Positions 1-16,514 of a DNA stretch of 23,915 bases are shown here, one piece after another. The translations under genes and the position numbers were made by a program. This DNA comes from a virus (taxonomy: Duplodnaviria > Heunggongvirae > Uroviricota > Caudoviricetes), in IMG/VR virus record IMGVR_UViG_2554235190_000005, positions 1 to 23,915 of that record. One strand, 5' to 3'. Below the pieces are notes generated by a model, which was not told the origin of the DNA, did no database searches, and saw nothing but the letters and a program-made list of their open reading frames with translations. Positions within the stretch are counted from its first letter, which is position 1. Each line of letters begins with the position of its first letter.

Positions 1-1053
1 TTACGGGGTAATGCCAACCGCTGCCGCCACTTTGTCGCCACTTGGCAGCGTTGCCAGAGGATTGAAACGGAGCGCCGTTTCCAGATGATCCGGTGCCAGA
101 TGTGCGTAACGCATAGTCATTTTTATATCGTGGTGTCCGAGAATTTTTTGTAAGGCCAGAATGTTTCCACCCGACATCATGAAGTGCGCCGCAAACGTAT
201 GGCGCAGAACGTGTGTGAGTTGACCGCGAGGGAGCACGATAGACGTTTTTTCCATCACGGATAAAAATTGAAAATAGCAGTCTGTGAAGAAATTGAACCC
301 ATCAAGCGCCATGATCTCTTCGTAAAGCTCTTTACTGATAGGGATGCTTCTGTTTTTCTTCCCCTTCGTTCTGACAAAGGTAATTCGGTATTTGGTCACC
401 TGTGAGCGGGTAAGATTTACGGCTTCACGCCAGCGTGCGCCTGTGCTTAAGCATATCTTAACTACCAGTGCCAGAATTGGGTCCTGACGTTTGCAATCAG
501 CCAGCAATTCAACAATCTGCTCATGGGTAAGCCATGCCATCTCTTTTTCTGCGATGGTGAATTTTCGCATGTTCTCCAGTGGGTTCGGATACGACCATTC
601 GCCCAGACGGGATAGTTCGCTAAAAACACTACTTAGATAGCTTTGCTCCAGGTTAATGGTGACCGGGCTTGCTCCTTTCTTCCATTTCTCGCTGAAGTAG
701 ATCTCGCCTGTCAGGCGTTTATCTCGATAGTGGGCAAACATTTTAGAGGTGAGATCGGTTGCAAGAGGATTGCCCAGAGCGTCAACCATCAACAGCAATT
801 TGTCATAGACATGCTGCCCAGCTGTCAGAGATTTACCATGTAGTTTGAACCATAGCTCAACCACGTCTTTCAGTGTTCGACGATCCACTGATTCACCCAG
901 CCAGGGCTTTGCTTCGGTTTCTTCCATCGTGTGGCGCTCAAAAGCCAGTGCTTCGCCTTTGGTGACGAATTGTTTACGCACACGACGCCCACTTCGTCCG
1001 GCGGGGTAACATTCGCAAAGCCATTTCCCAGTGGTGAGTTTTCGTACTGCCAT
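1..1053 (-). CDS. int: Tyrosine recombinase (phage integrase), P2/186 family
   Basis: ORF 1..1209 (-) has a conserved C-terminal catalytic region (..CLSTGARWREA.., ..LRHTFAAHFMMSGGNILALQKILGHHDIKMTMRYAHL..). Start set at the ATG at 1051-1053 (MAVRKLTTGKW...), preceded by GGAGGG about 8 nt upstream on the coding strand; the longer frame back to 1209 is probably untranslated. Stop is at 1..3, so attL should lie just outside the window. Confidence 0.85.
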   Translation of the reverse strand: MAVRKLTTGKWLCECYPAGRSGRRVRKQFVTKGEALAFERHTMEETEAKPWLGESVDRRTLKDVVELWFKLHGKSLTAGQHVYDKLLLMVDALGNPLATDLTSKMFAHYRDKRLTGEIYFSEKWKKGASPVTINLEQSYLSSVFSELSRLGEWSYPNPLENMRKFTIAEKEMAWLTHEQIVELLADCKRQDPILALVVKICLSTGARWREAVNLTRSQVTKYRITFVRTKGKKNRSIPISKELYEEIMALDGFNFFTDCYFQFLSVMEKTSIVLPRGQLTHVLRHTFAAHFMMSGGNILALQKILGHHDIKMTMRYAHLAPDHLETALRFNPLATLPSGDKVAAAVGITP

Positions 1054-1241
1054 AAAAAATGCCCTCCAGTAGAGAGCATTTTCACTGTATGTATAACCAG
1101 TGTCAATGTATGAAATTCTACGACCATACATCTCACTGAAGCCATAATTAAGTTGGCTATTCTTTTTGCTATGTGAGCATGTAACTTTTGCGGTTAACCT
1201 GCGGCTCATTTTTATTTTAGACGCAGATATAAAAGCAAAAG

Positions 1242-3362: not shown

Positions 3363-3704
3363 ATGGCAATTAATGGCGCTGCAGCAACTGTTCCATTAAG
3401 CCCCGGTGAACGCCTGAATGGACTTAATCACATTGCAGAGTTAAGGGCGAAAGTTTTTGGCCTGAATATTGAGTCAGAGCTTGAGCGGTTTATTAAAGAT
3501 ATGCGTGATCCACGGGATATCAATAATGAACAAAATAAACGGGCACTGGCTGCCATATTCTTTATGGCAAAAATTCCAGCTGAACGTCATAGCATCAGCA
3601 TTAATGAGCTGACCACTGACGAAAAGCGGGAGCTGATTAAAGCAATGAATCATTTTCGTGCAGTGGTGAGCTTATTTCCCAGACGGCTAACCATGCCGAA
3701 TTAA
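3363..3704 (+). CDS. Hypothetical early protein (113 aa)
   Basis: ATG 3363 with a G-rich RBS; co-directional in the early operon. Confidence 0.55.
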   Translation: MAINGAAATVPLSPGERLNGLNHIAELRAKVFGLNIESELERFIKDMRDPRDINNEQNKRALAAIFFMAKIPAERHSISINELTTDEKRELIKAMNHFRAVVSLFPRRLTMPN

Positions 3705-4232: not shown

Positions 4233-5086
4233 GCACCATCCTGAAATGGGCGGGAAATAAAACCGCCATTATGCCAGAACTGAAAAAATACCTTCCTGCT
4301 GGCCCGCGACTGGTTGAACCTTTCGCGGGTTCCTGTGCTGTGATGATGGAAACGGATTATCCCAGCTATCTGGTTGCGGATATTAATCCTGATTTAATCA
4401 ACCTCTATAAAAAGGTTGCCGCTGATTGTGAATCGTTTATATCTCGCGCCAGAGTTTTATTTGAGATCGCAAACAGGGAGGTGGCTTATTACAACATAAG
4501 GCAGGAGTTTAACTGCTCAACTGAAATTACTGATTTCATGAAAGCGGTATATTTCCTGTATCTTAATCGTCACGGTTACCGTGGTTTATGTCGCTATAAC
4601 AAGAGCGGGCATTTCAACATCCCCTACGGTAATTATAAAAATCCGTATTTCCCTGAAAAAGAACTTCGCACATTTGCAGAAAAAGCCCAGCGAGCAACGT
4701 TTATCTGCGCCAGCTTTGATGAAACGCTGGCGATGTTGAAGGCGGGAGATGTGGTGTATTGCGATCCGCCGTATGACGGTACGTTTTCCGGCTATCACAC
4801 TGATGGTTTCACTGAAGATGACCAGTATCACCTGGCATCCGTTCTTGAACATCGGTCATCAGAAGGACATCCAGTCATTGTTTCTAACAGTGACACATCC
4901 CTGATCCGTTCGCTGTATCGCAATTTTACTCACCACTATATCAAGGTAAAACGCAGCATCGGTGTGGCAGCTGGCGAGGGTAAATCAGCAACAGAAATCA
5001 TTGCTGTTTCCGGGCCGCGCTGCTGGATGGGATTTGATTATTCGCGTGGCGTGGATAGTTCTGCCGTGTACGGAGTACGTGCATGA
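4229..5086 (+). CDS. DNA adenine methyltransferase, Dam/D12 class (N6-adenine MTase)
   Basis: N-terminus [23 protein letters not shown]...[10 protein letters not shown] and a DPPY catalytic motif (..[10 protein letters not shown]..); ATG 4229 overlaps the upstream stop, GGAGGTG RBS. Confidence 0.85.
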
Positions 5087-7497
5087 GTCATGCCGATATG
5101 AACAACTGCTGCGGCTTTAACGAGGCTGCCGCAGCATTCTCATGGAACAGCCCGAAAAAGGCCATTAACCCTTATCTGGACCCGGCGGAAGTTGCGCCGG
5201 TTTCTACGCTTTCAAACCTGATCACTCTGTACGCTGCCGATAACGAGCAGGAACAGTTGCGCCGCGAGGCACTGAGTGATCAGGTCTGGGAGCGTTATTT
5301 CTTTAATGAATCACGTGATCCTGTCCAGCGCGAAATGGAGCAGGATAAGCTCATTAGCCGGGCAAAGCTGGCGCATGAGCAGCAGCGTTTTAATTCAGAC
5401 ATGGTCATTCTGGCGGACGTCAACGCCCAGCCTTCCCATATCAGCAAGCCGCTGATGCAACGTATTGAATACTTCAGCAGCCTGGGCAGGCCAAAGGCTT
5501 ATTCCCGCTATTTACGTGAGACGATTAAGCCATGTCTGGAACGACTGGAGCATGTACGCGACAGTCAGCTATCTGCATCTTTTCGCTTTATGGCAAGCCA
5601 TGAAGGGCTGGACGGCCTGCTGATCCTGCCTGAAATGAGTCAGGATCAGGTGAAACGCCTGTCCACCCTGGTAGCTGCGCATATGAGTATGTGCCTTGAT
5701 GCAGCTTGTGGTGATTTGTATGCCACCGATGACGTTAAGCCAGAAGAAATCCGCAAGACATGGGAAAAGGTGGCAGCGGAAACCCTGCGTCTGGATGTCA
5801 TCCCACCTGCGTTTGAGCAACTCCGTCGGAAAAGAAACCGCCGTAAACCCGTGCCCTATGAACTCATTCCGGGTTCGCTGGCGCGTATGTTGTGCGCCGA
5901 CTGGTGGTACCGGAAATTATGGAAGATGCGTTGCGAATGGCGGGAAGAGCAGTTGCGCGCTGTTTGCCTGGTCAGCAAAAAAGCATCTCCTTATGTCAGC
6001 TATGAAGCCGTGATGCATAAACGTGAGCAGCGCCGTAAGTCGCTGGAGTTTTTCCGTTCTCATGAACTGGTGAACGAAGACGGCGACACGCTGGACATGG
6101 AGGATGTGGTAAACGCCAGCAGCAGCAACCCTGCGCATCGCCGCAATGAGATGATGGCCTGTGTTAAAGGTCTGGAGCTTATCGCGGAAATGCGCGGTGA
6201 CTGCGCCGTTTTCTACACTATCACCTGTCCGTCGCGTTTCCATTCCACGCTAAATAACGGCAGACCAAACCCGACCTGGACAAACGCGACGGTAAGACAA
6301 AGCAGCGATTATCTGGTCGGCATGTTTGCTGCATTTCGTAAGGCGATGCACAAAGCCGGGTTGCGCTGGTATGGCGTGCGGGTGGCTGAGCCGCATCATG
6401 ATGGCACAGTTCACTGGCACCTGTTGTGTTTCATGCGCAAAAAAGACCGCCGTGCCATCACTGCATTACTGCGTAAGTTTGCCATCCGTGAAGACCGCGA
6501 GGAGCTGGGCAATAACACTGGGCCGCGCTTTAAGTCTGAGTTGATTAACCCGCGCAAAGGAACGCCGACAAGCTACATCGCGAAATATATCAGTAAGAAC
6601 ATTGACGGTCGTGGTCTGGCTGGCGAGATCAGCAAGGAAACGGGTAAATCTCTGCGTGATAACGCTGAATACGTGAATGCCTGGGCGTCTCTGCATCGTG
6701 TTCAGCAATTCCGCTTCTTTGGTATTCCGGGGCGTCAGGCTTACCGTGAACTTCGCTTGCTGGCTGGTCAGGCGGCAAGGCAACAGGGTGACAAAAAAGC
6801 AGGTGCGCCGGTACTGGATAACCCGCGTCTTGATGCCATTCTGGCTGCTGCTGATGCTGGTTGTTTTGCCACCTACATCATGAAGCAGGGCGGCGTACTG
6901 GTTCCCCGTAAATATCACCTCATCAGAACCGCTTATGAAATCAACGAAGAGCCGACCGCCTATGGCGATCACGGCATTCGTATTTATGGCATCTGGTCAC
7001 CCATTGCAGAGGGCAAGATCTGCACTCATGCAGTGAAGTGGAAAATGGTTCGTAAAGCCGTTGACGTTCAGGAGGCGGCAGCCGACCAGGGCGCTTGCGC
7101 CCCTTGGACTCGTGGCAATAACTGTCCCCTTGCTGAAAATTTGTACCAACAAGGGAAAGACAAATCAACTGATGGAGATACCAGAACGGATATCACCCGC
7201 ATGGATGACAAGGAGTTGCACGATTACCTGCACAGTATGAGCAAAAAAGAGCGCCGGGAACTGGCAGCAAGGTTACGCCTGGTGAAACCGAAACGGCGTA
7301 AAGACTACAAACAGCGAATTACAGACCATCAGCGACTGCAGCTCGTGTATGAACTGAAGTCCAGGGGATTTGATGGCAGCGAGAAAGAGGTCGATTTACT
7401 GCTTCGCGGCGGCAGTATTCCGTCAGGAGCAGGGCTACGTATCTTCTATCGGAACCAGCGTTTGCAGGAAGATGATAAGTGGCGGAACCTGTATTAA
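5083..7497 (+). CDS. A: Replication initiation protein (P2 gpA-like rolling-circle endonuclease)
   Basis: 804-aa ORF at the end of the early operon; size and position match P2/186 gene A. Start overlaps the dam stop; the true start could be a downstream Met. Confidence 0.8.
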
Positions 7498-7588
7498 TTA
7501 CGCGGGTTAACAATTCGTGCTCTTAATAATACCAGGCATATCAGGCTGATGAACGTAAAAAAACGTTTTACATCAGTAAGATTATCAT

Positions 7589-7608
7589 ATACTGTAAATA
7601 TAAACAGT
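7589..7608. promoter_or_regulatory. LexA box (SOS operator) TACTGTAAATATAAACAGTG overlapping a candidate promoter (TTTACA at 7566-7571)
   Basis: CTGT-N8-ACAG with an AT-rich spacer, close to the consensus TACTGTATATATATACAGTA; about 45 bp upstream of the ATG at 7651. 186 tum is known to be LexA-controlled. Confidence 0.7.
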
Positions 7609-7650
7609 GGTTATCTATACAGTATTGTTTGCGGTGTCATAGGAGGAAAG

Positions 7651-7839
7651 ATGCAGGACTATTTTTTGGAGTCTTTGAAGCTCCAGCGCATTGATTTTTT
7701 TCTTAAGCTTGTAGCGGCTAGTGAGTGTAGTGATGAAGAGAAGGGGCTGGCCCTGCAGTGGGTTTCTGAATTGACTGATGAACTCATGGCAAAAATCAGA
7801 AGCCACGAATACAACCGCTCAATGGATGTCATCAGCTGA
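7651..7839 (+). CDS. SOS-regulated small protein (62 aa), possible Tum-like antirepressor N-terminal module
   Basis: ATG 7651 with AGGAGGA RBS; first gene downstream of the LexA box; followed 10 nt later by a DinI-like gene. Confidence 0.5.
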   Translation: MQDYFLESLKLQRIDFFLKLVAASECSDEEKGLALQWVSELTDELMAKIRSHEYNRSMDVIS

Positions 7840-7849
7840 GGTGACTTTT

Positions 7850-8083
7850 ATGCGCATTGAAATAATGATCGATAAAGAGCAGAAGATTAGCCAGTCTACC
7901 CTGGACGCTCTGGAGTCCGAGCTTTACCGCAACCTGCAACCCATCTATCCCAAGACCGCTATCCGCATCCGTAAAGGGTCGGCAAACGGCGTTGAGCTGA
8001 GTGGCTTAAAGCTTGATGAAGACAAAAAGCGGGTGATGGAAATTATGCAACAGGTTTGGGAAGACGACAGCTGGCTGCACTAA
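7850..8083 (+). CDS. DinI-family protein (Tum C-terminal-like)
   Basis: MRIEIMIDKEQK...LDALESEL...VWEDDSWL resembles E. coli DinI (MRIEVTIAK...ETWESADDWF) in length and motifs; RBS GAGG upstream of ATG 7850. Confidence 0.7.
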   Translation: MRIEIMIDKEQKISQSTLDALESELYRNLQPIYPKTAIRIRKGSANGVELSGLKLDEDKKRVMEIMQQVWEDDSWLH

Positions 8084-8156
8084 GGAACGTTCCTGATGTA
8101 AGAACTTGAATCTGACGTCAGCAAGGTTGAACAACGAGAGTAGCGAGGCGTTAGCC

Positions 8157-8417
8157 ATGGGTAAAAAAGACAGTAATCACCAGATTATTTATCGGGGCTA
8201 GGTGCTGGAACGTTTAACCCTTGGCGACTGGGTCTTCTTTCAACGCCCAAAGGAGTGTGGCGGAGGTTTTTGGTTGGGCCGCATCTATGAAGACTGCTTC
8301 TGGCTTGAGCTGGAATTCCCCGTTTCGCTATATGACGGCCTGGGGTTTTTGATGGAAGTCACTAGGGTAGAGCAGAGAAGTGATGAGGTTGACGCGAATT
8401 ATCCCCTGTTTGATTAA
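8157..8417 (+). pseudogene. Hypothetical gene interrupted by an in-frame amber codon (TAG at 8199-8201)
   Basis: ATG 8157 with GAGG RBS opens a frame that hits TAG after 14 codons and continues in the same frame as the track ORF 8202..8417 (GTG start, weak RBS). Confidence 0.4.
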
Positions 8418-8465
8418 AAATGTATTAGCTTATAATGGAATACTATTTTTGCAGGTGGGGGCGCA

Positions 8466-9077
8466 ATGGATTTAGTCTTTAAAGTTCTGGCTTCGTTGGG
8501 TGGGGTGTCTTTTGTTGCATCTGGCATATTTGTTTGGATCGGGAAAGTTTATTTAGAAAGATATAAGTCGCGGCTAAACAAAGATATTGCTGAATTTCAA
8601 TCACAACTGAGTGCAACTAATGAAAGAATAAAGGCTAAGTTAGACAATTCTGTTTATGTAACGAAAGCGTATTTTGATAAGGAGTTATCAGCATATAGTC
8701 TCATTTGGAATTCGATGTTTGAAACCAGAGAAAGCGTGCTTAAGCTGAGGCCTGCGCTGGATCATGTTGACCCCAACGAACCATTTGAAGAGAGAAAATT
8801 TAGAAGGTTGAAAGTTTTTTCTGATGCATTTAACACTTTTGTTACAAGTGTTGAATCTAACAAACCGTTCATCTCACCAGAGGTTTATATAATCTTGGAC
8901 CGTTTCCGGAAGGAATGCCTTTCAGAGTCAATATCGTTTAAGCATAGCGATCCAGAATTTGACGGGCAAAATTATTGGAAAGAGGCGGAGTTGAACCATA
9001 CAACCATCATCAAGCTTTTTGATGAGACGTGTGATGCAATTCGAGACAGGATGCACACATTAACTGTGGTTACGTAG
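8466..9077 (+). CDS. Membrane-anchored hypothetical protein (203 aa), AT-rich cargo
   Basis: N-terminal transmembrane-like helix (LASLGGVSFVASGIFVWIG) then a charged soluble domain; strongly AT-rich versus the phage backbone; TTATAAT-like -10 element upstream. Confidence 0.6.
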   Translation: MDLVFKVLASLGGVSFVASGIFVWIGKVYLERYKSRLNKDIAEFQSQLSATNERIKAKLDNSVYVTKAYFDKELSAYSLIWNSMFETRESVLKLRPALDHVDPNEPFEERKFRRLKVFSDAFNTFVTSVESNKPFISPEVYIILDRFRKECLSESISFKHSDPEFDGQNYWKEAELNHTTIIKLFDETCDAIRDRMHTLTVVT

Positions 9078-9237
9078 GTTTCCAAAAAGTCTCGATGCCC
9101 GCTTTGGAGATTGTGCATGTCTATGCCGCATGAATCCGCATGATCGTTTGAGGATCGTTTTAGCTGAGGCCCGCCAGGAGTGGCGGGATTTTGCTTATGT
9201 CATGCAGGCGCATGAAAACCGCTACATAAAGCGGGCA

Positions 9238-9256
9238 GGCGTGGCGGGGATACGAG
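9238..9256. other. Candidate cos site (19-nt cohesive-end sequence GGCGTGGCGGGGATACGAG followed by GCGCGCGC)
   Basis: From memory, P2 and 186 cohesive ends begin GGCGAGGCGGGGA / GGCGTGGCGGGGA; this is the only such match in the window and sits in a GC-rich non-coding gap between A-side cargo and Q, where cos is expected. Confidence 0.5.
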
Positions 9257-9293
9257 CGCGCGCTTATTACTTTGATAGTACTCGGGTTATAAT

Positions 9294-10976
9294 ATGGATG
9301 ACTATCTATCTCGGAGAATGTGCATGTCATTGGACTATATCAAAGAACAGTTGTCAGACTTTATTTCATCTGCAGAACCTGAGGTAATGGCTATTCAGGG
9401 TGAGTGGGGGATTGGGAAAACCTATACTTGGAATACTTTCTTAAAGGAAAATAAAAATAAGATTGCATTTAATAGATATAGTTACGTCTCTCTTTTTGGT
9501 GTTAATTCATTGGACGCATTAAAATACTCCATCTTTGAAAATACAATTACAAAAGATTTTATTGGAAATAAACCTAATTTAAAAACAGCAACACAAAATG
9601 CAAAGGGGCTTCTTGAATCCTGCACTAGAAAGACCGCTCGTGTGTTAAAAGAAACACCTGTTGTGAAAAATTTTACTACGACACTTGAGTCAATGTCATT
9701 TATGTCAATTACTAATGTTATTGTAGTCATAGATGACTTAGAAAGACGTGGTAAAAATTTAGAAGTGAAAGATGTCTTAGGGTTGGTTTCTTTATTGAAA
9801 GAACAAAAAAATTGTAAGGTGGTTCTTTTACTTAATAATGGGACAAGTGGTATGGATGACTACTCCACTTATAAAGAAAAGGTTATTGATAGAGAGATTA
9901 CCTATAACCCTACGCCAGAAGAATGTGCAGCTATAGCATATAAAAATGATTCTGATGTTCATAAATTATTAAGCAAATACTCCATTTCTCTAGGTATTAA
10001 AAATATTCGTATACTGAAAAAAATAGAGCGGTTTTTGCTAGCCTTGTTACCTGGTATTAACGTTAATTTTGATAAAATTGCAAATGAAGTCGCACGCTCC
10101 TTAACTTTGTATTGTTGGAGTCATTACGCATTTACTCCAGATGGAGATGTACCATCATTGGAGTATATTAGAAATATGAGAAATATCTATATGCGTGATG
10201 AAAAAGAGGATGGAAAAGAAAAAAAATGGCATAATACTTTGCTTATATATGGTTATAAAAAAACAAACGAACTTGATGAAGTCCTTATAGACATGGTTAA
10301 GCATGGATATATTGATATGAATAATTTTCAAAGGCAAGTAAGTCTAAGGAATGATGAACTTATCCGTGATAGTAAGCGAGGTTCACTGTTTGAAGCATGG
10401 AAGCTTTTCTATAATTCATTTGAAGATAACCGAAATCAGGTTGTTGATAATCTATATCAAGCGGTGGTTGGTGGGATAGAGTATGTAACTCCAAGTGACT
10501 TGGATAGTGTTGTCGGACTGTATAGAGATTTAGATGAAAATATTAAAGCAAGTGAATTAATAAGTAAATTTATTAATTACGGCAATGATGCTCTTAAGGA
10601 ATATGTCCAATCTATTTACATGAATGTTCATCCTATAAAAGATGCTGAGTTAAAGTCAAAAATCCAAGATTATTCTACTAATTTAAATCTGGATGGTTCT
10701 ATAAAGGATGTTCTAATAAAATTATCAAGTCAGAATGGTTGGTCTGATAGGCACGAGGAAATATTGGATGCTGCCTCAGAGGGTGACTACTATGATTTAT
10801 TTAAAAAAGTCATTCTTGAAGGTGGTGATTCAATAATAGCCACTGCTCTTAAGTTTGGTGGGTATAGCAATGGTTCAGATAGAATGAAACGCATCGGAGA
10901 AAAAGCGAGAAATGCTTTGATAAGAATTGGAAATGAGTCGAAGATTAATAAAATACGTGTTAGACGGTATTTGTAA
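9294..10976 (+). CDS. KAP-family P-loop NTPase (560 aa), AT-rich cargo; candidate defence / abortive-infection protein
   Basis: Walker A GEWGIGKTYTWN and Walker B-like VIVVIDDLER in the KAP arrangement; very AT-rich; the true start may be the ATG at 9324 (GGAG about 9 nt upstream). Confidence 0.8.
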   Translation: MDDYLSRRMCMSLDYIKEQLSDFISSAEPEVMAIQGEWGIGKTYTWNTFLKENKNKIAFNRYSYVSLFGVNSLDALKYSIFENTITKDFIGNKPNLKTATQNAKGLLESCTRKTARVLKETPVVKNFTTTLESMSFMSITNVIVVIDDLERRGKNLEVKDVLGLVSLLKEQKNCKVVLLLNNGTSGMDDYSTYKEKVIDREITYNPTPEECAAIAYKNDSDVHKLLSKYSISLGIKNIRILKKIERFLLALLPGINVNFDKIANEVARSLTLYCWSHYAFTPDGDVPSLEYIRNMRNIYMRDEKEDGKEKKWHNTLLIYGYKKTNELDEVLIDMVKHGYIDMNNFQRQVSLRNDELIRDSKRGSLFEAWKLFYNSFEDNRNQVVDNLYQAVVGGIEYVTPSDLDSVVGLYRDLDENIKASELISKFINYGNDALKEYVQSIYMNVHPIKDAELKSKIQDYSTNLNLDGSIKDVLIKLSSQNGWSDRHEEILDAASEGDYYDLFKKVILEGGDSIIATALKFGGYSNGSDRMKRIGEKARNALIRIGNESKINKIRVRRYL

Positions 10977-10984
10977 TTTGGGAG

Positions 10985-11002
10985 GGGGATTTTCATCCCC
11001 CA
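10985..11002. terminator. Perfect hairpin GGGGGAT-TTTC-ATCCCCC between convergent genes (NTPase + strand, Q - strand)
   Basis: 7-bp GC-rich stem with a 4-nt loop, sited between the stop at 10976 and the Q stop at 11015; no strong T-run on either strand, so terminator function is uncertain. Confidence 0.4.
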
Positions 11003-11014
11003 CACACATTTTAT

Positions 11015-12046
11015 CTAATTCAATGAATAATCTTTGAAGGCTATTATTTTTTTCTTTAGCCAAATATTAACTTCTACAAGTCTTTTTTGTAAAGGAATTA
11101 ACTCATTTCGCACAAAAACGCAACTGGCTTTCTCCACATCCCCAAACCCACCGACATTATTAGGCATAATCCCCATCATTTGCGGCGGCACACGATGCGC
11201 CGCCATCATGTCATCCCGGCTCACGTTCTTGATATTCAAAAACTCATCCTTCGCAGCGACCTCTGACAACGGGATAATCTGAAGCCCGTCCTTTTTGCCG
11301 TTAGGCGAGTACATAAACAGGTTGCGGAAGTTGCCCGGACCTTTGGCGCTTTTCATCGCATTACGGAGGTTGTTTACATCCTCCTGGTTCTGCGCGGCAT
11401 CGGTCATGTACATGATGAAGCCTGCATGGCTGCCGTTGATGTAATACTTACGGCGGAACAGCGTGGCGGACTCGTTGAGCAGGGCTGACGGAATGGCAGA
11501 AAGATAGCCGGGCAGGCCGTAGATCTCCTGGTTGATGTCCGGTTCCATCAGATGAAAAATGCTGCCTTTCGTGAACTGATACGGCTGAGTTGTCATACCG
11601 TATTGCACAAACCAGTAGGTATCTAGGTCTAACCCGCGTCGGGTGTATTTTGCCAGCGCAGGCTCAAGGGCGATAACTTCACCGAATCGGTTCGTGCGTT
11701 TCTCCAGGTAGGCGTTACCAAATACCAGATAGTCCTGCACAAAACGCGAAAAAGCCTGCTGGCTGAGCAGCGGATGAGGGATATAGGTACTGGTCAGAAT
11801 GTTGCACTTTACTGCAATCGGGGAACTGTGATGCACGGCAGCGCGGAAGGTGCGCGCCAGTCCGTCAAAGCTGACGGGCGGCTCATACCAACGATCTGTC
11901 TGTACGCATTCCACATAGTCCAGCAGTTCTCGGCGGTCCAGAACAGGAACGGGATCGCCGAAGCTGAATGCTTCGGCTGTAGTCTGGCTTTTAAGCTGGA
12001 TCTGTTTCGTCGCCGCAGCGCGGTTCTTCTTACTCTTTCCCATCAA
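11015..12046 (-). CDS. Q: Portal protein (P2 gpQ-like)
   Basis: 343 aa, leftward, translationally coupled to the upstream terminase gene; size and position match P2 Q. Confidence 0.9.
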   Translation of the reverse strand: MMGKSKKNRAAATKQIQLKSQTTAEAFSFGDPVPVLDRRELLDYVECVQTDRWYEPPVSFDGLARTFRAAVHHSSPIAVKCNILTSTYIPHPLLSQQAFSRFVQDYLVFGNAYLEKRTNRFGEVIALEPALAKYTRRGLDLDTYWFVQYGMTTQPYQFTKGSIFHLMEPDINQEIYGLPGYLSAIPSALLNESATLFRRKYYINGSHAGFIMYMTDAAQNQEDVNNLRNAMKSAKGPGNFRNLFMYSPNGKKDGLQIIPLSEVAAKDEFLNIKNVSRDDMMAAHRVPPQMMGIMPNNVGGFGDVEKASCVFVRNELIPLQKRLVEVNIWLKKKIIAFKDYSLN

Positions 12047-13809
12047 AAAATCTCCACAATATTGCTGGTATTGGCGGATTCGCCCTGCAGCGGTTCGTTA
12101 AACAGTGCGTGCATTGTTGCCCAGGCCAGATCGGCGTGGCTGGCTTCTTCGCTGCGGCTGGCTTCATAGGTCGGGCGGTTGCCACTGGCGGTGGTGGCGC
12201 GACGGATTGCCATAAATGACTGCGCTATGTCGGTGTGTCCGGCGTCAAACTCCAGACGGCGGTGGCTGATAATGTCGTAGGCCTTGAGTACCAGGGCGTT
12301 TTTAACATTGGGGTTGTAGACAAACTCCCGGACGGCAGGAAAGAACGCTTTCACGTTCTCATAAACCCCGTGACCAACGCCGGTTGAGTCGATACCGATA
12401 TAGGTCACGTTGTACTGTTCGGTCAGTTTTTTGATGGCGTCAGCCTGGGCGCGGAAGTCCATCCCGCGCCACTGGTGACGCTCAAGAATGCGGAACTTAC
12501 CGCCCGGCACGGCTGGCGGTGCCACCACCACGCATCCGGCGCTGTCGCCGTTCTGCGTACCTTTTGCCGGGTCATAACCGATCCACACTTCGCGCCAGCC
12601 AAACGGGCGAAGGGCCAGTGCATGGAAGTCGGTCCAGACTTCCCAGCTGTCCACCATGCACGCCTGCAGCTCGCTGAGCGGAAACACGGACGCGAGATCG
12701 TCCACGAACTCGCACATCAGCAGGTTCAGGTATTCATCCGGGCTGTACTCCATGCGCAACTGGTCAAGGTCGAACAGGTTACAGCCGCCGCGCACTGCAT
12801 CTTCCACGGTGACTATCTGGCGGTATTGCCCGTCTGCGCACAGCAGGCCGGGGGCCAGATTGCTGTGGGACAGGTCGATGTCCACCTTGTCGGCTTTGTT
12901 GCGTCCACGGTTGAACAGCGCACCGGACCAGAACGGATAAGCACTGTGGGTCAGGCTGGATGGCGTGGAAAAATAGGTTTGTCGCCATTTCTTGTGAATA
13001 GCCATACCGGAAGCCACTTTGCGCAGCTCCTGGAATTTCGGTATCCAGAAATATTCATCCAGATACAGGTTGCCGTGGTAACTCTGCGCCGTGCGGGCAT
13101 TGGTGCCGAGGAAGTAAAGCGTGGCCCCGTTAGGAAGCACCATCGGATCGCCTTTCAACTCCACCTCCACTTCTTTGGCGAAGTCGATGATGTACTGTTT
13201 AAAGACGTGGGCCTGTGCCTTACTGGCGGAAAGGAAAATCTGGTTACGTCCGGTAAGCAGGGCGTCAATCAGGGCTTCACGGGCAAAGTAAAAGGTCGCG
13301 CCGATCTGGCGTGACTTCAGCAGGTTGCGGATGCGGTTGGTTTTTCCGGCTTCCCACCAGTGGCGCTGGTAGTTGAACATGGAGGAATGGAAAATTTCTT
13401 CCAGCTTCTCAATCTGTTCATCGGTGAAAACGTTCTTTTCCGGCTGACGGCGTGGGCCTTTGTTGCGGTTGGCGACGTTAGGGTTTAAGTCGGCTTCGTT
13501 GCCGCCATTGTTAAACTTGCCGATCCGCGCGTGGCGTTCCGACTGGCGCGCCAGCAGGTCAATCTCTTTGAAATCTTTCCCTTCTTTGTGCTCCTTCATA
13601 ATGAGCTGGCAGTAGCGTGCGGCGGTGGTGAGCTGCATCTGATCCAGCGGCCCATAGTCACCCCACTTGTCGCGTTTTTTCCAGCTGTGAACGGTTGCAA
13701 CTTTCTCGCCCAGCATTTCAGCAATGCGGGCTACGCGGTATCCCTGAAAGTACAGCAGCATGGCCTGCCGACGGGGATCGAGATCTGCGGGTGTCAGTGT
13801 GGTGTTCAT
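12043..13809 (-). CDS. P: Terminase large (ATPase) subunit (P2 gpP-like)
   Basis: 588 aa, divergent from the O-N-M-L operon as in P2; size matches gpP. Confidence 0.9.
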   Translation of the reverse strand: MNTTLTPADLDPRRQAMLLYFQGYRVARIAEMLGEKVATVHSWKKRDKWGDYGPLDQMQLTTAARYCQLIMKEHKEGKDFKEIDLLARQSERHARIGKFNNGGNEADLNPNVANRNKGPRRQPEKNVFTDEQIEKLEEIFHSSMFNYQRHWWEAGKTNRIRNLLKSRQIGATFYFAREALIDALLTGRNQIFLSASKAQAHVFKQYIIDFAKEVEVELKGDPMVLPNGATLYFLGTNARTAQSYHGNLYLDEYFWIPKFQELRKVASGMAIHKKWRQTYFSTPSSLTHSAYPFWSGALFNRGRNKADKVDIDLSHSNLAPGLLCADGQYRQIVTVEDAVRGGCNLFDLDQLRMEYSPDEYLNLLMCEFVDDLASVFPLSELQACMVDSWEVWTDFHALALRPFGWREVWIGYDPAKGTQNGDSAGCVVVAPPAVPGGKFRILERHQWRGMDFRAQADAIKKLTEQYNVTYIGIDSTGVGHGVYENVKAFFPAVREFVYNPNVKNALVLKAYDIISHRRLEFDAGHTDIAQSFMAIRRATTASGNRPTYEASRSEEASHADLAWATMHALFNEPLQGESANTSNIVEIF

Positions 13810-13855
13810 GGCACAAACCTACAGCCTTGAATGAAGGCTTTCCCCGCCTGCGGTT

Positions 13856-15863: not shown

Positions 15864-16514
15864 ATGAGCCTGAGTCCCGCACGGCAGCATCGCCTGCGCG
15901 TTCAGGCTGAACAGGCCGCCCGCGAGGGCGGCAGCGTTCGCCACGCGTCGGGCTATGACCTGATGCTGCTGCAACTGGCGGAAGACCGCCGCCGTCTCAA
16001 GGGCGTTCAGTCCACGGTCAAAAAAGCAGAAATCAAAGTGGAGCTGCTGCCGAAGTACGCCGCCTGGGCTGAGGGCGTCCTGGCTGCCGGAGGCGCTCAA
16101 CAGGATGACGTGCTGATGTACGTGATGCTGTGGCGCATTGATGCCGGAGATTATGCCGGGGCGCTGGAGATCGGGCGTCATGCTCTGCGTCATGGCTGGG
16201 TGATGCCGCTGGGTAACCGCAATGTGCAGACCGTGCTGGCAGAGGAAATGGCAGACGCGGCACAGAGCGCAATGCTTGCCACTACCGGCTTTGATGTCGA
16301 TCTGCTGCTGCAGACGCTGGAGCTGACAGACGGTCTGGATATGCCGGACCAGTCACGGGCGCGTCTGCATAAAGCGATTGGCGCTGTCCTGAGTGAAAGT
16401 AATCCGGCTTTCGCCCTTAATCATCTCAACCATGCGTTACAGCTCGATCCCCGCTGTGGCGTGAAAAAAGACAAACAGCAGCTGGAGCGCAGACTGCGCA
16501 ATGACAGCCGCTGA
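15864..16514 (+). CDS. M: Terminase small (endonuclease) subunit (P2 gpM-like)
   Basis: 216 aa directly after N; position and size match gpM. Confidence 0.8.
   Translation: MSLSPARQHRLRVQAEQAAREGGSVRHASGYDLMLLQLAEDRRRLKGVQSTVKKAEIKVELLPKYAAWAEGVLAAGGAQQDDVLMYVMLWRIDAGDYAGALEIGRHALRHGWVMPLGNRNVQTVLAEEMADAAQSAMLATTGFDVDLLLQTLELTDGLDMPDQSRARLHKAIGAVLSESNPAFALNHLNHALQLDPRCGVKKDKQQLERRLRNDSR

Follow-up and report, generated by a model that had tools for sequence, protein, structure and literature searches.

A probable P2-family cos site within the variable A-to-Q region of a P2-like prophage, with a KAP NTPase gene between it and the portal gene

Where would the packaged DNA of a P2-like prophage begin if a cargo gene stands next to its portal gene? 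In P2, 186 and PSP3 the portal gene lies within about 170-200 bp of cos, with no gene between them. A different arrangement was proposed for the DNA considered here, a stretch of 23,915 nucleotides from IMG/VR virus record IMGVR_UViG_2554235190_000005 (positions 1 to 23,915; hereafter the window). The initial annotation placed a probable phage cos site at 9238-9256, inside the accessory region and not beside the portal gene Q. A KAP NTPase gene was said to lie between this site and Q, which would make a cargo gene the extreme left end of the packaged DNA. These proposals were followed up by gene calling, profile searches, alignment with known cos regions and a survey of related loci.

Gene calls and Pfam matches identify a P2-like prophage, read from its integrase end. 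The window covers about 24 kb of it and stops short of the tail-end genes and attR. The integrase gene (1-1209, minus strand) comes first and the replication gene gpA follows at 5083-7497 (Pfam Phage_GPA). From gpA to the cos island, a left accessory slot (7498-9112, plus strand) holds a DinI-like gene (Pfam DinI), small ORFs and a 203-aa ORF. Beyond the proposed site lie the portal gene Q (11015-12046, minus strand; Pfam Phage_portal) and an intact gene P for the large terminase subunit (gpP homologue; 12043-13809, minus strand; Pfam Terminase_6N, Terminase_6C and Terminase_5). The order after P is gpO, gpN, gpM and gpL, and the small terminase subunit gene (gpM homologue; 15864-16514, plus strand) is likewise intact (Pfam Phage_term_smal, E 1.6e-40). 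The gpP, gpM, gpO, gpN, gpL and gpA genes are all full length with strong Pfam matches. The site is therefore placed between replication and accessory genes on one side and convergent portal-terminase genes on the other, and the window encodes its cognate gpP and gpM. The 203-aa ORF of the left slot (8466-9077) is labelled 'valyl-tRNA synthetase' in RefSeq E. coli annotation. Its match to the valyl-tRNA synthetase tRNA-binding arm domain is sub-threshold, at 16.7 bits against a cut-off of 25.9, and the label is probably a misannotation.

The proposed cosN is the 19-nt sequence GGCGTGGCGGGGATACGAG (9238-9256, plus strand), recognised by its homology to P2-family cohesive ends. It occurs only once in the window, even with three mismatches allowed, and is of the GGCG(A/T)GGCGGGGA... 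cohesive-end type. Compared with verified cohesive ends, it agrees at 15/19 positions with 186 and PSP3 and at 14/19 with P2 and P4. Bases 1-13 are the same as in 186, and the four mismatches to the verified 186 end all fall in the right third. There the window reads ATACGAG, whereas P2, P4, 186 and PSP3 read AAAGCAY (four to five mismatches). The bases directly 3' of the 19-mer are CGCGCGC (9257-9263). The initial annotation had GCGCGCGC following the 19-mer; that sequence is present, but it lies at 9256-9263 and so overlaps the last G of the 19-mer.

The wider context of the 19-mer was compared with known cos regions, a check that had been proposed along with the site. Circular junctions of P2, 186 and P4 were rebuilt from their GenBank ends, with the annotated 19-nt cohesive ends, and aligned with the window, Fels-2 and Cartapus. 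The continuous block of P2/P4 identity in this alignment is exactly 55 bp, in agreement with the 55-bp cos core of Ziermann & Calendar (1990), as that work is cited in a passage of PMC5694545. The position of this core on the P2 and P4 sequences was inferred from the alignment. Its window equivalent (9209-9263, plus strand) comprises GCATGAAAACC, an inverted repeat (9219-9234), AAGCGGGC, the 19-mer and CGCGCGC, and is identical to P2 at 42/55 positions, to 186 at 44/55 and to P4 at 43/55. The flanks are also of the P2-family type, with GCATTAAAACC...AAGCGGGC on the left and YGCGCGC on the right. Invariant columns are found within three GCAT repeats ∼95-125 bp upstream, GCAT(T/G)AAAACC, AAG(C/T)GGGC, the 19-mer and GCGCGC. 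Past GCGCGC the alignment contains no conservation, not even for P2 and P4 with their common terminase. Taken with PSP3, the known sites thus have in common with the window the upstream TGCAT repeats, GCATKAAAACC, the inverted repeat, AAGYGGGC, GGCGWGGCGGGGA... and YGCGCGC. Their placement is also alike, between gpA-side accessory genes and Q-P, with nearly all of the conservation to the left of the nick.

A profile derived from just the 55-bp cores of P2, 186 and P4 matched the window at 9210-9262 (E 6.8e-10), and its next-best match, at 13834-13849, had an E-value of 0.57. Together with the 14-15/19 identity, this single match upholds the proposed resemblance to the P2/186 cohesive end, and the alignment agrees with P2, 186 and P4 over the 19-mer, the core and the upstream TGCAT repeats. 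Judged by these comparisons, the match of the 19-mer is far beyond chance. More than 120 IMG/VR contigs contain the exact 19-mer, as do prophages from dozens of enterobacterial species, and in the window neither it nor the core departs from the clade consensus.

The best-surviving alternative accepts all of this homology and holds that the cos is genuine, but that in this strain a defective prophage leaves it uncut. Cryptic members are common among P2-like prophages, and the window does not reach the tail-end genes or attR, so that a defect, or a second cos, could lie beyond it. However, the head and packaging genes within the window are full length with strong Pfam matches, and the 19-mer and core match the clade consensus throughout. 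A defective prophage is thus an unlikely reading, if one to be kept in mind.

Two of the surveyed loci carry more than one cos-like sequence. The metagenomic viral contig IMGVR_UViG_3300011853_000021 has two exact 19-mers, at 3447-3465 (minus strand) and 6704-6722 (plus strand), inverted and 3.2 kb apart, which a rearrangement or a chimeric assembly could explain. In Enterobacter sp. kpr-6, a degenerate second cos-like sequence lies ∼7.5 kb beyond Q, downstream of the main cos. It has three mismatches in the motif and an AGAGCAT-type end, and may derive from an adjacent prophage or a satellite remnant. The ends of IMG/VR contigs were also considered as a proxy for phage termini and rejected. 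Wherever the locus took up an entire contig the match was internal, and the set appears to consist mainly of prophage predictions.

How far the conserved sequence extends was measured in 80 Q-relative loci (one genome per species) and 120 IMG/VR stretches that contain the exact 19-mer. These yielded 178 unique sequences, which were anchored on the 19-mer and numbered from its first base. Between -125 and +25 the columns are 75-100% identical, against 30-50% on either side of this interval; positions -7 to +13 were used for sequence selection, so that conservation is circular there and not elsewhere. The resulting cos island of ∼150 bp (9113-9263, plus strand) has variable cargo DNA on either flank. 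It lies almost wholly to the left of the nick, and conservation is gone from +26. Cargo DNA thus begins ∼7 bp beyond the cut site. A profile made from the relatives matches the window at 9110-9265 (E 9e-52). E. coli matches with KAP cargo begin at window positions 9109-9114, and the stretch to the left of 9109 differs among them.

Several elements can be recognised within the island. Three (T)GCATG repeats start at 9115, 9128 and 9138 (9114-9143, plus strand), which places TGCAT motifs ∼95-125 bp upstream of the nick, and their GCAT cores are invariant in the alignment of P2, 186, P4, Fels-2 and Cartapus. The 125 bp to the left of the nick contain five GCATG/CATGC motifs (9114-9143 and 9203-9216), a ∼20-fold excess over the window-wide density of 1.84 per kb. 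By analogy with other cos phages, these repeats are candidate binding sites for the small terminase subunit. A terminator scan found a GC-rich hairpin, CCCGCCAGGAGTGGCGGG, followed by ATTTTGCTTA (9170-9197, hairpin 9170-9187, plus strand). The position of this hairpin is conserved in the relatives (-70 to -50), and it looks like a terminator that closes the leftward accessory genes; phage 186 has an annotated terminator, t95b, upstream of its cos. The island is also spanned by an 85-aa ORF (9130-9387), which is recorded as 'hypothetical protein' in several phage records and is without a family match. It overlies sequence that is conserved at the DNA level and is probably not a gene.

These observations bear on a second alternative, in which the functional cos adjoins Q as it does in P2 and 186 (for example at 10977-11014), with 9238-9256 being either a relic or a GC-rich stretch that matches by chance. 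The short spacing in P2, 186 and PSP3 speaks for such a site, as does its occurrence in 11/64 relatives. However, both the verified-core profile and the clade profile are silent near Q, and the best match of the verified-core profile outside the island is the one at 13834-13849. An island that is conserved across species while its flanks vary is also unlike a relic. The interval 10977-11014, which the initial annotation had named as the place where the termini might map instead, was examined by profile and by folding. It was rejected as a cos, as nothing cos-like was found there: it has no cos-like score and no Rfam family. It contains only a 7-bp GC hairpin (GGGGGAT TTTC ATCCCCC, 10984-11001), found by folding between the convergent KAP and Q genes, with an unremarkable folding energy (z -0.8). 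An Rfam scan of 8900-11300 returned only a chance-level match to atoC (E 0.99). A functional cos beside Q is accordingly very improbable.

The remaining alternative assigns the cos island and the KAP gene to another element (a P4-like satellite or a second prophage remnant) that abuts the portal gene. It takes some support from P4-like satellites, in which a similar cos has a defence hotspot directly on its right. It is scarcely credible here, as the complete genomes of SEN8, Cartapus and Fels-2 are collinear with the window over gpA, DinI, small ORFs, cos, cargo, Q and P, no satellite genes or second integrase are found nearby and the window has a single cos.

We therefore regard 9238-9256 as very likely to be the cosN of a P2-family prophage of the 186/Fels-2/Elveevirus type, with foreign cargo toward Q. 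Sequence-level tests all favour a cos inside the A-to-Q region over one beside Q, as had been proposed. Late in lytic growth, a terminase of gpM and gpP would bind the island, introduce nicks 19 nt apart on opposite strands and package a single genome length. With nick positions taken by homology from the annotation of the 186 and PSP3 records, cleavage of the top strand would fall 5' of G9238 and that of the bottom strand across from the 3' side of G9256, which would leave 19-nt 5' overhangs. Virion DNA would then begin with GGCGTGG... at 9238. With cos at 9238-9256, the packaged DNA would also have the KAP cargo gene at its extreme left end, ahead of all other genes, in line with the original proposal. 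To the right of the nick, conservation is limited to CGCGCGC, and the DNA from about 9264 would be free to vary. P2 and P4 are both packaged by the P2 terminase and share only ∼7 bp to the right of the 19-mer, so that a cargo gene this close to cos is compatible with packaging.

The cargo gene itself (9324-10976, plus strand) encodes a 550-aa KAP-family P-loop NTPase and is a candidate anti-phage gene. The Pfam family KAP_NTPase (PF07693) matches residues 18-207 of the ORF that starts at 9294, with 36.2 bits against a cut-off of 20 (E 5e-9). This supports the claim that a KAP NTPase gene lies between the site and Q. The distance of about 1.7 kb from the site to the Q stop also held, with 1,758 bp measured from the 19-mer and the Q ORF ending at 11015. 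RefSeq names the product 'P-loop NTPase fold protein', and many KAP members have transmembrane helices inserted in their NTPase domain. The protein also matches the PADLOC candidate system PDC-S49 (E 1.5e-25), and this homology suggests a possible role in defence. PDC-S49 was not found mentioned in the literature searched. The KAP NTPase could be an uncharacterised single-gene anti-phage system.

Base composition sets the cassette apart, with a GC content of 31-35% from ∼9250/9264 to about 11100 versus 51-62% in the structural genes. It starts with an AT-rich leader (9264-9323, plus strand) that contains a -35 hexamer TTATTA (9264-9269), a -10 hexamer TATAAT (9288-9293) and a ribosome-binding site GGAG (9313-9316). 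The -10 hexamer, spotted by eye, is perfect; the -35 is weak, with 3/6 matches, and the spacer is 18 nt. A consensus promoter scan made no call between 9257 and 9323 because the -35 matches at only these three positions. We consider 9264-9293 a candidate promoter for the KAP gene, which runs toward Q. The cassette would thus consist of a candidate promoter, the KAP gene and a hairpin.

At the other end of the cassette, the last ∼20 codons of Q (about 11015-11075) vary among relatives and do so with the cargo, and AT-rich DNA continues to about 11100. A KAP-bearing locus of Citrobacter pasteurii has a very similar Q C-terminal tail. Given this AT-rich 3' end that varies with the cargo, cargo exchange seems to have its right-hand junction within Q.

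Is the distance between cos and Q exceptional in this prophage? Among 64 species-level loci, a median of 1,544 bp separates cos from the Q stop, and in relatives the spacing ranges from 151 to 3,529 bp. It is at least 600 bp in 52/64 species-level relatives, while the P2-like spacing of less than 300 bp accounts for the 11/64 mentioned above; 73/87 IMG/VR loci also have cos at least 600 bp from Q. On the other side of cos, the distance from the gpA stop to the island is 311 to 4,253 bp in 44 relatives. The slot of the window fits this cos-to-Q pattern, with variable foreign DNA from a few bp to the right of cosN up to the 3' end of Q.

In relatives the slot holds genes of lysogenic conversion or defence, restriction-modification genes among them. 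Of the slot ORFs of at least 100 aa, 92/98 are on the same strand as the KAP gene and point away from cos toward Q. PADLOC matches were obtained for 8/9 sampled slot proteins. Six of these are to named families of defence proteins (type II MTase, IetS, bSEFIR, Old, AbiLi and Hp1); of the remaining two, one is partial and pAgo-type and the other is a weak match to PDC-S12. KAP homologues with 38-74% identity occupy the cos-to-Q slot of four other species. In E. coli, at least 80% of 8900-11300, the unit of cos, KAP and Q, is present in 128/5,426 complete genomes, with the best match to the window, NZ_CP025862, reaching 97.2% over the full 2.4 kb query. A 29,509-bp 'extrachromosomal' sequence of E. 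coli O25b:H4 (NZ_CP015088.1), deposited as a separate replicon beside a chromosomal prophage, was considered as a free cos-terminated phage genome. It is a linear, frameshift-rich, partial copy of the same KAP-bearing phage, from Dam to gpD, and includes the unit of cos, KAP and Q. Its ends are not cos, the proposal was rejected, and it looks like an assembly by-product.

The closest named relatives are the Felsduovirus/Elveevirus phages SEN8, Fels-2 and Cartapus, whose 19-mer is identical to that of the window and whose cos islands are near-identical. All three have cargo between cos and portal that differs from the KAP gene: a hypothetical protein and an HNH endonuclease in SEN8, a DUF4145 protein in Cartapus and a 565-aa ORF in Fels-2. 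A search for homology of the Fels-2 slot protein to the KAP NTPase found none. The SEN8 sequence comes from CsCl-purified virions, and its authors name the window's 19-mer as cos, assigned by annotation. The Cartapus record lists a 'putative cos site, homologous to the cos of P2', then the DUF4145 gene and then the portal gene. In both records the cos features are annotations by homology, and our profiles find one cos-like site in each complete genome. For phage 4LV2017, BLAST coordinates alone suggest a cos-to-Q distance of ∼2.1 kb.

More distant examples have been described for decades. In phiCTX, cosL (1-21) is followed by the toxin gene ctx (362-1222) and then by the Q homologue (1417-2469), so that ctx sits in the slot as the KAP gene does here, although the phiCTX cohesive end is annotated as 21 nt rather than the 19 nt of the window. 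Together with phiCTX ctx, the retrons Ec67 and Ec86 (Dodd & Egan 1996) and ORF1-4 of phiRSY1 are presented in the passages concerned as foreign genes to the right of cos and upstream of the portal gene. Their cargo (a toxin, retrons and a Vgr-like protein) differs from the KAP gene, and some of the hosts, Pseudomonas and Ralstonia, are distant. The position between cosL and Q is proposed as a hotspot for foreign genes in a passage of PMC5694545, which cites Dodd & Egan 1996 and Nakayama 1999.

The same locus was later surveyed as the gpA-gpQ defence hotspot of E. coli P2-like prophages by Rousset et al. (2022), who report the analysis of 18,150 gpA-gpQ loci in E. coli. Their Table S5A lists NZ_CP025862 with 'hypothetical + hypothetical + KAP_NTPase + DinI'. 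In the portions pertinent to this locus, both this study and a 2026 follow-up in NAR treat A-to-Q as a single hotspot 'adjacent to cos', with the side of cos unstated. The cos-cargo-portal layout is thus already known and common, and has been described since the 1990s. It is ordinary because it is the majority state of the clade, is annotated in public phage records and is covered in the literature. The novelty that the initial annotation implied for it did not survive this comparison.

The general understanding of P2-like phages is accordingly unchanged. Cargo between cos and portal has been known since the 1990s from phiCTX and from retron-carrying 186-like prophages, and the KAP-bearing locus already appears in the 2022 catalogue of P2 hotspot systems, as listed in its table (Rousset 2022). 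What the site offers is mainly of value for annotation, as it fixes the start of the packaged genome for this prophage family and lets cos divide the variable A-to-Q region into a left slot and a right slot. The ∼7 bp that are conserved to the right of the nick should be useful for designing cos plasmids and for engineering cargo in P2-like vectors. More speculatively, the gpA-gpQ hotspot might consist of two independently exchanging slots around the fixed ∼150-bp cos island, which would serve as a shared homology arm. Right-slot cassettes, with promoter, cargo, hairpin and the last ∼20 codons of Q, would then move as a whole, the left-end position of the cargo could matter, and the KAP protein would separately be a possible anti-phage system. 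We put this forward tentatively, with low confidence in the scheme as a whole. If it is true, the position of the cargo at the left end could affect the timing of its entry into the cell, and cutting at cos could uncouple the cargo from upstream transcription.
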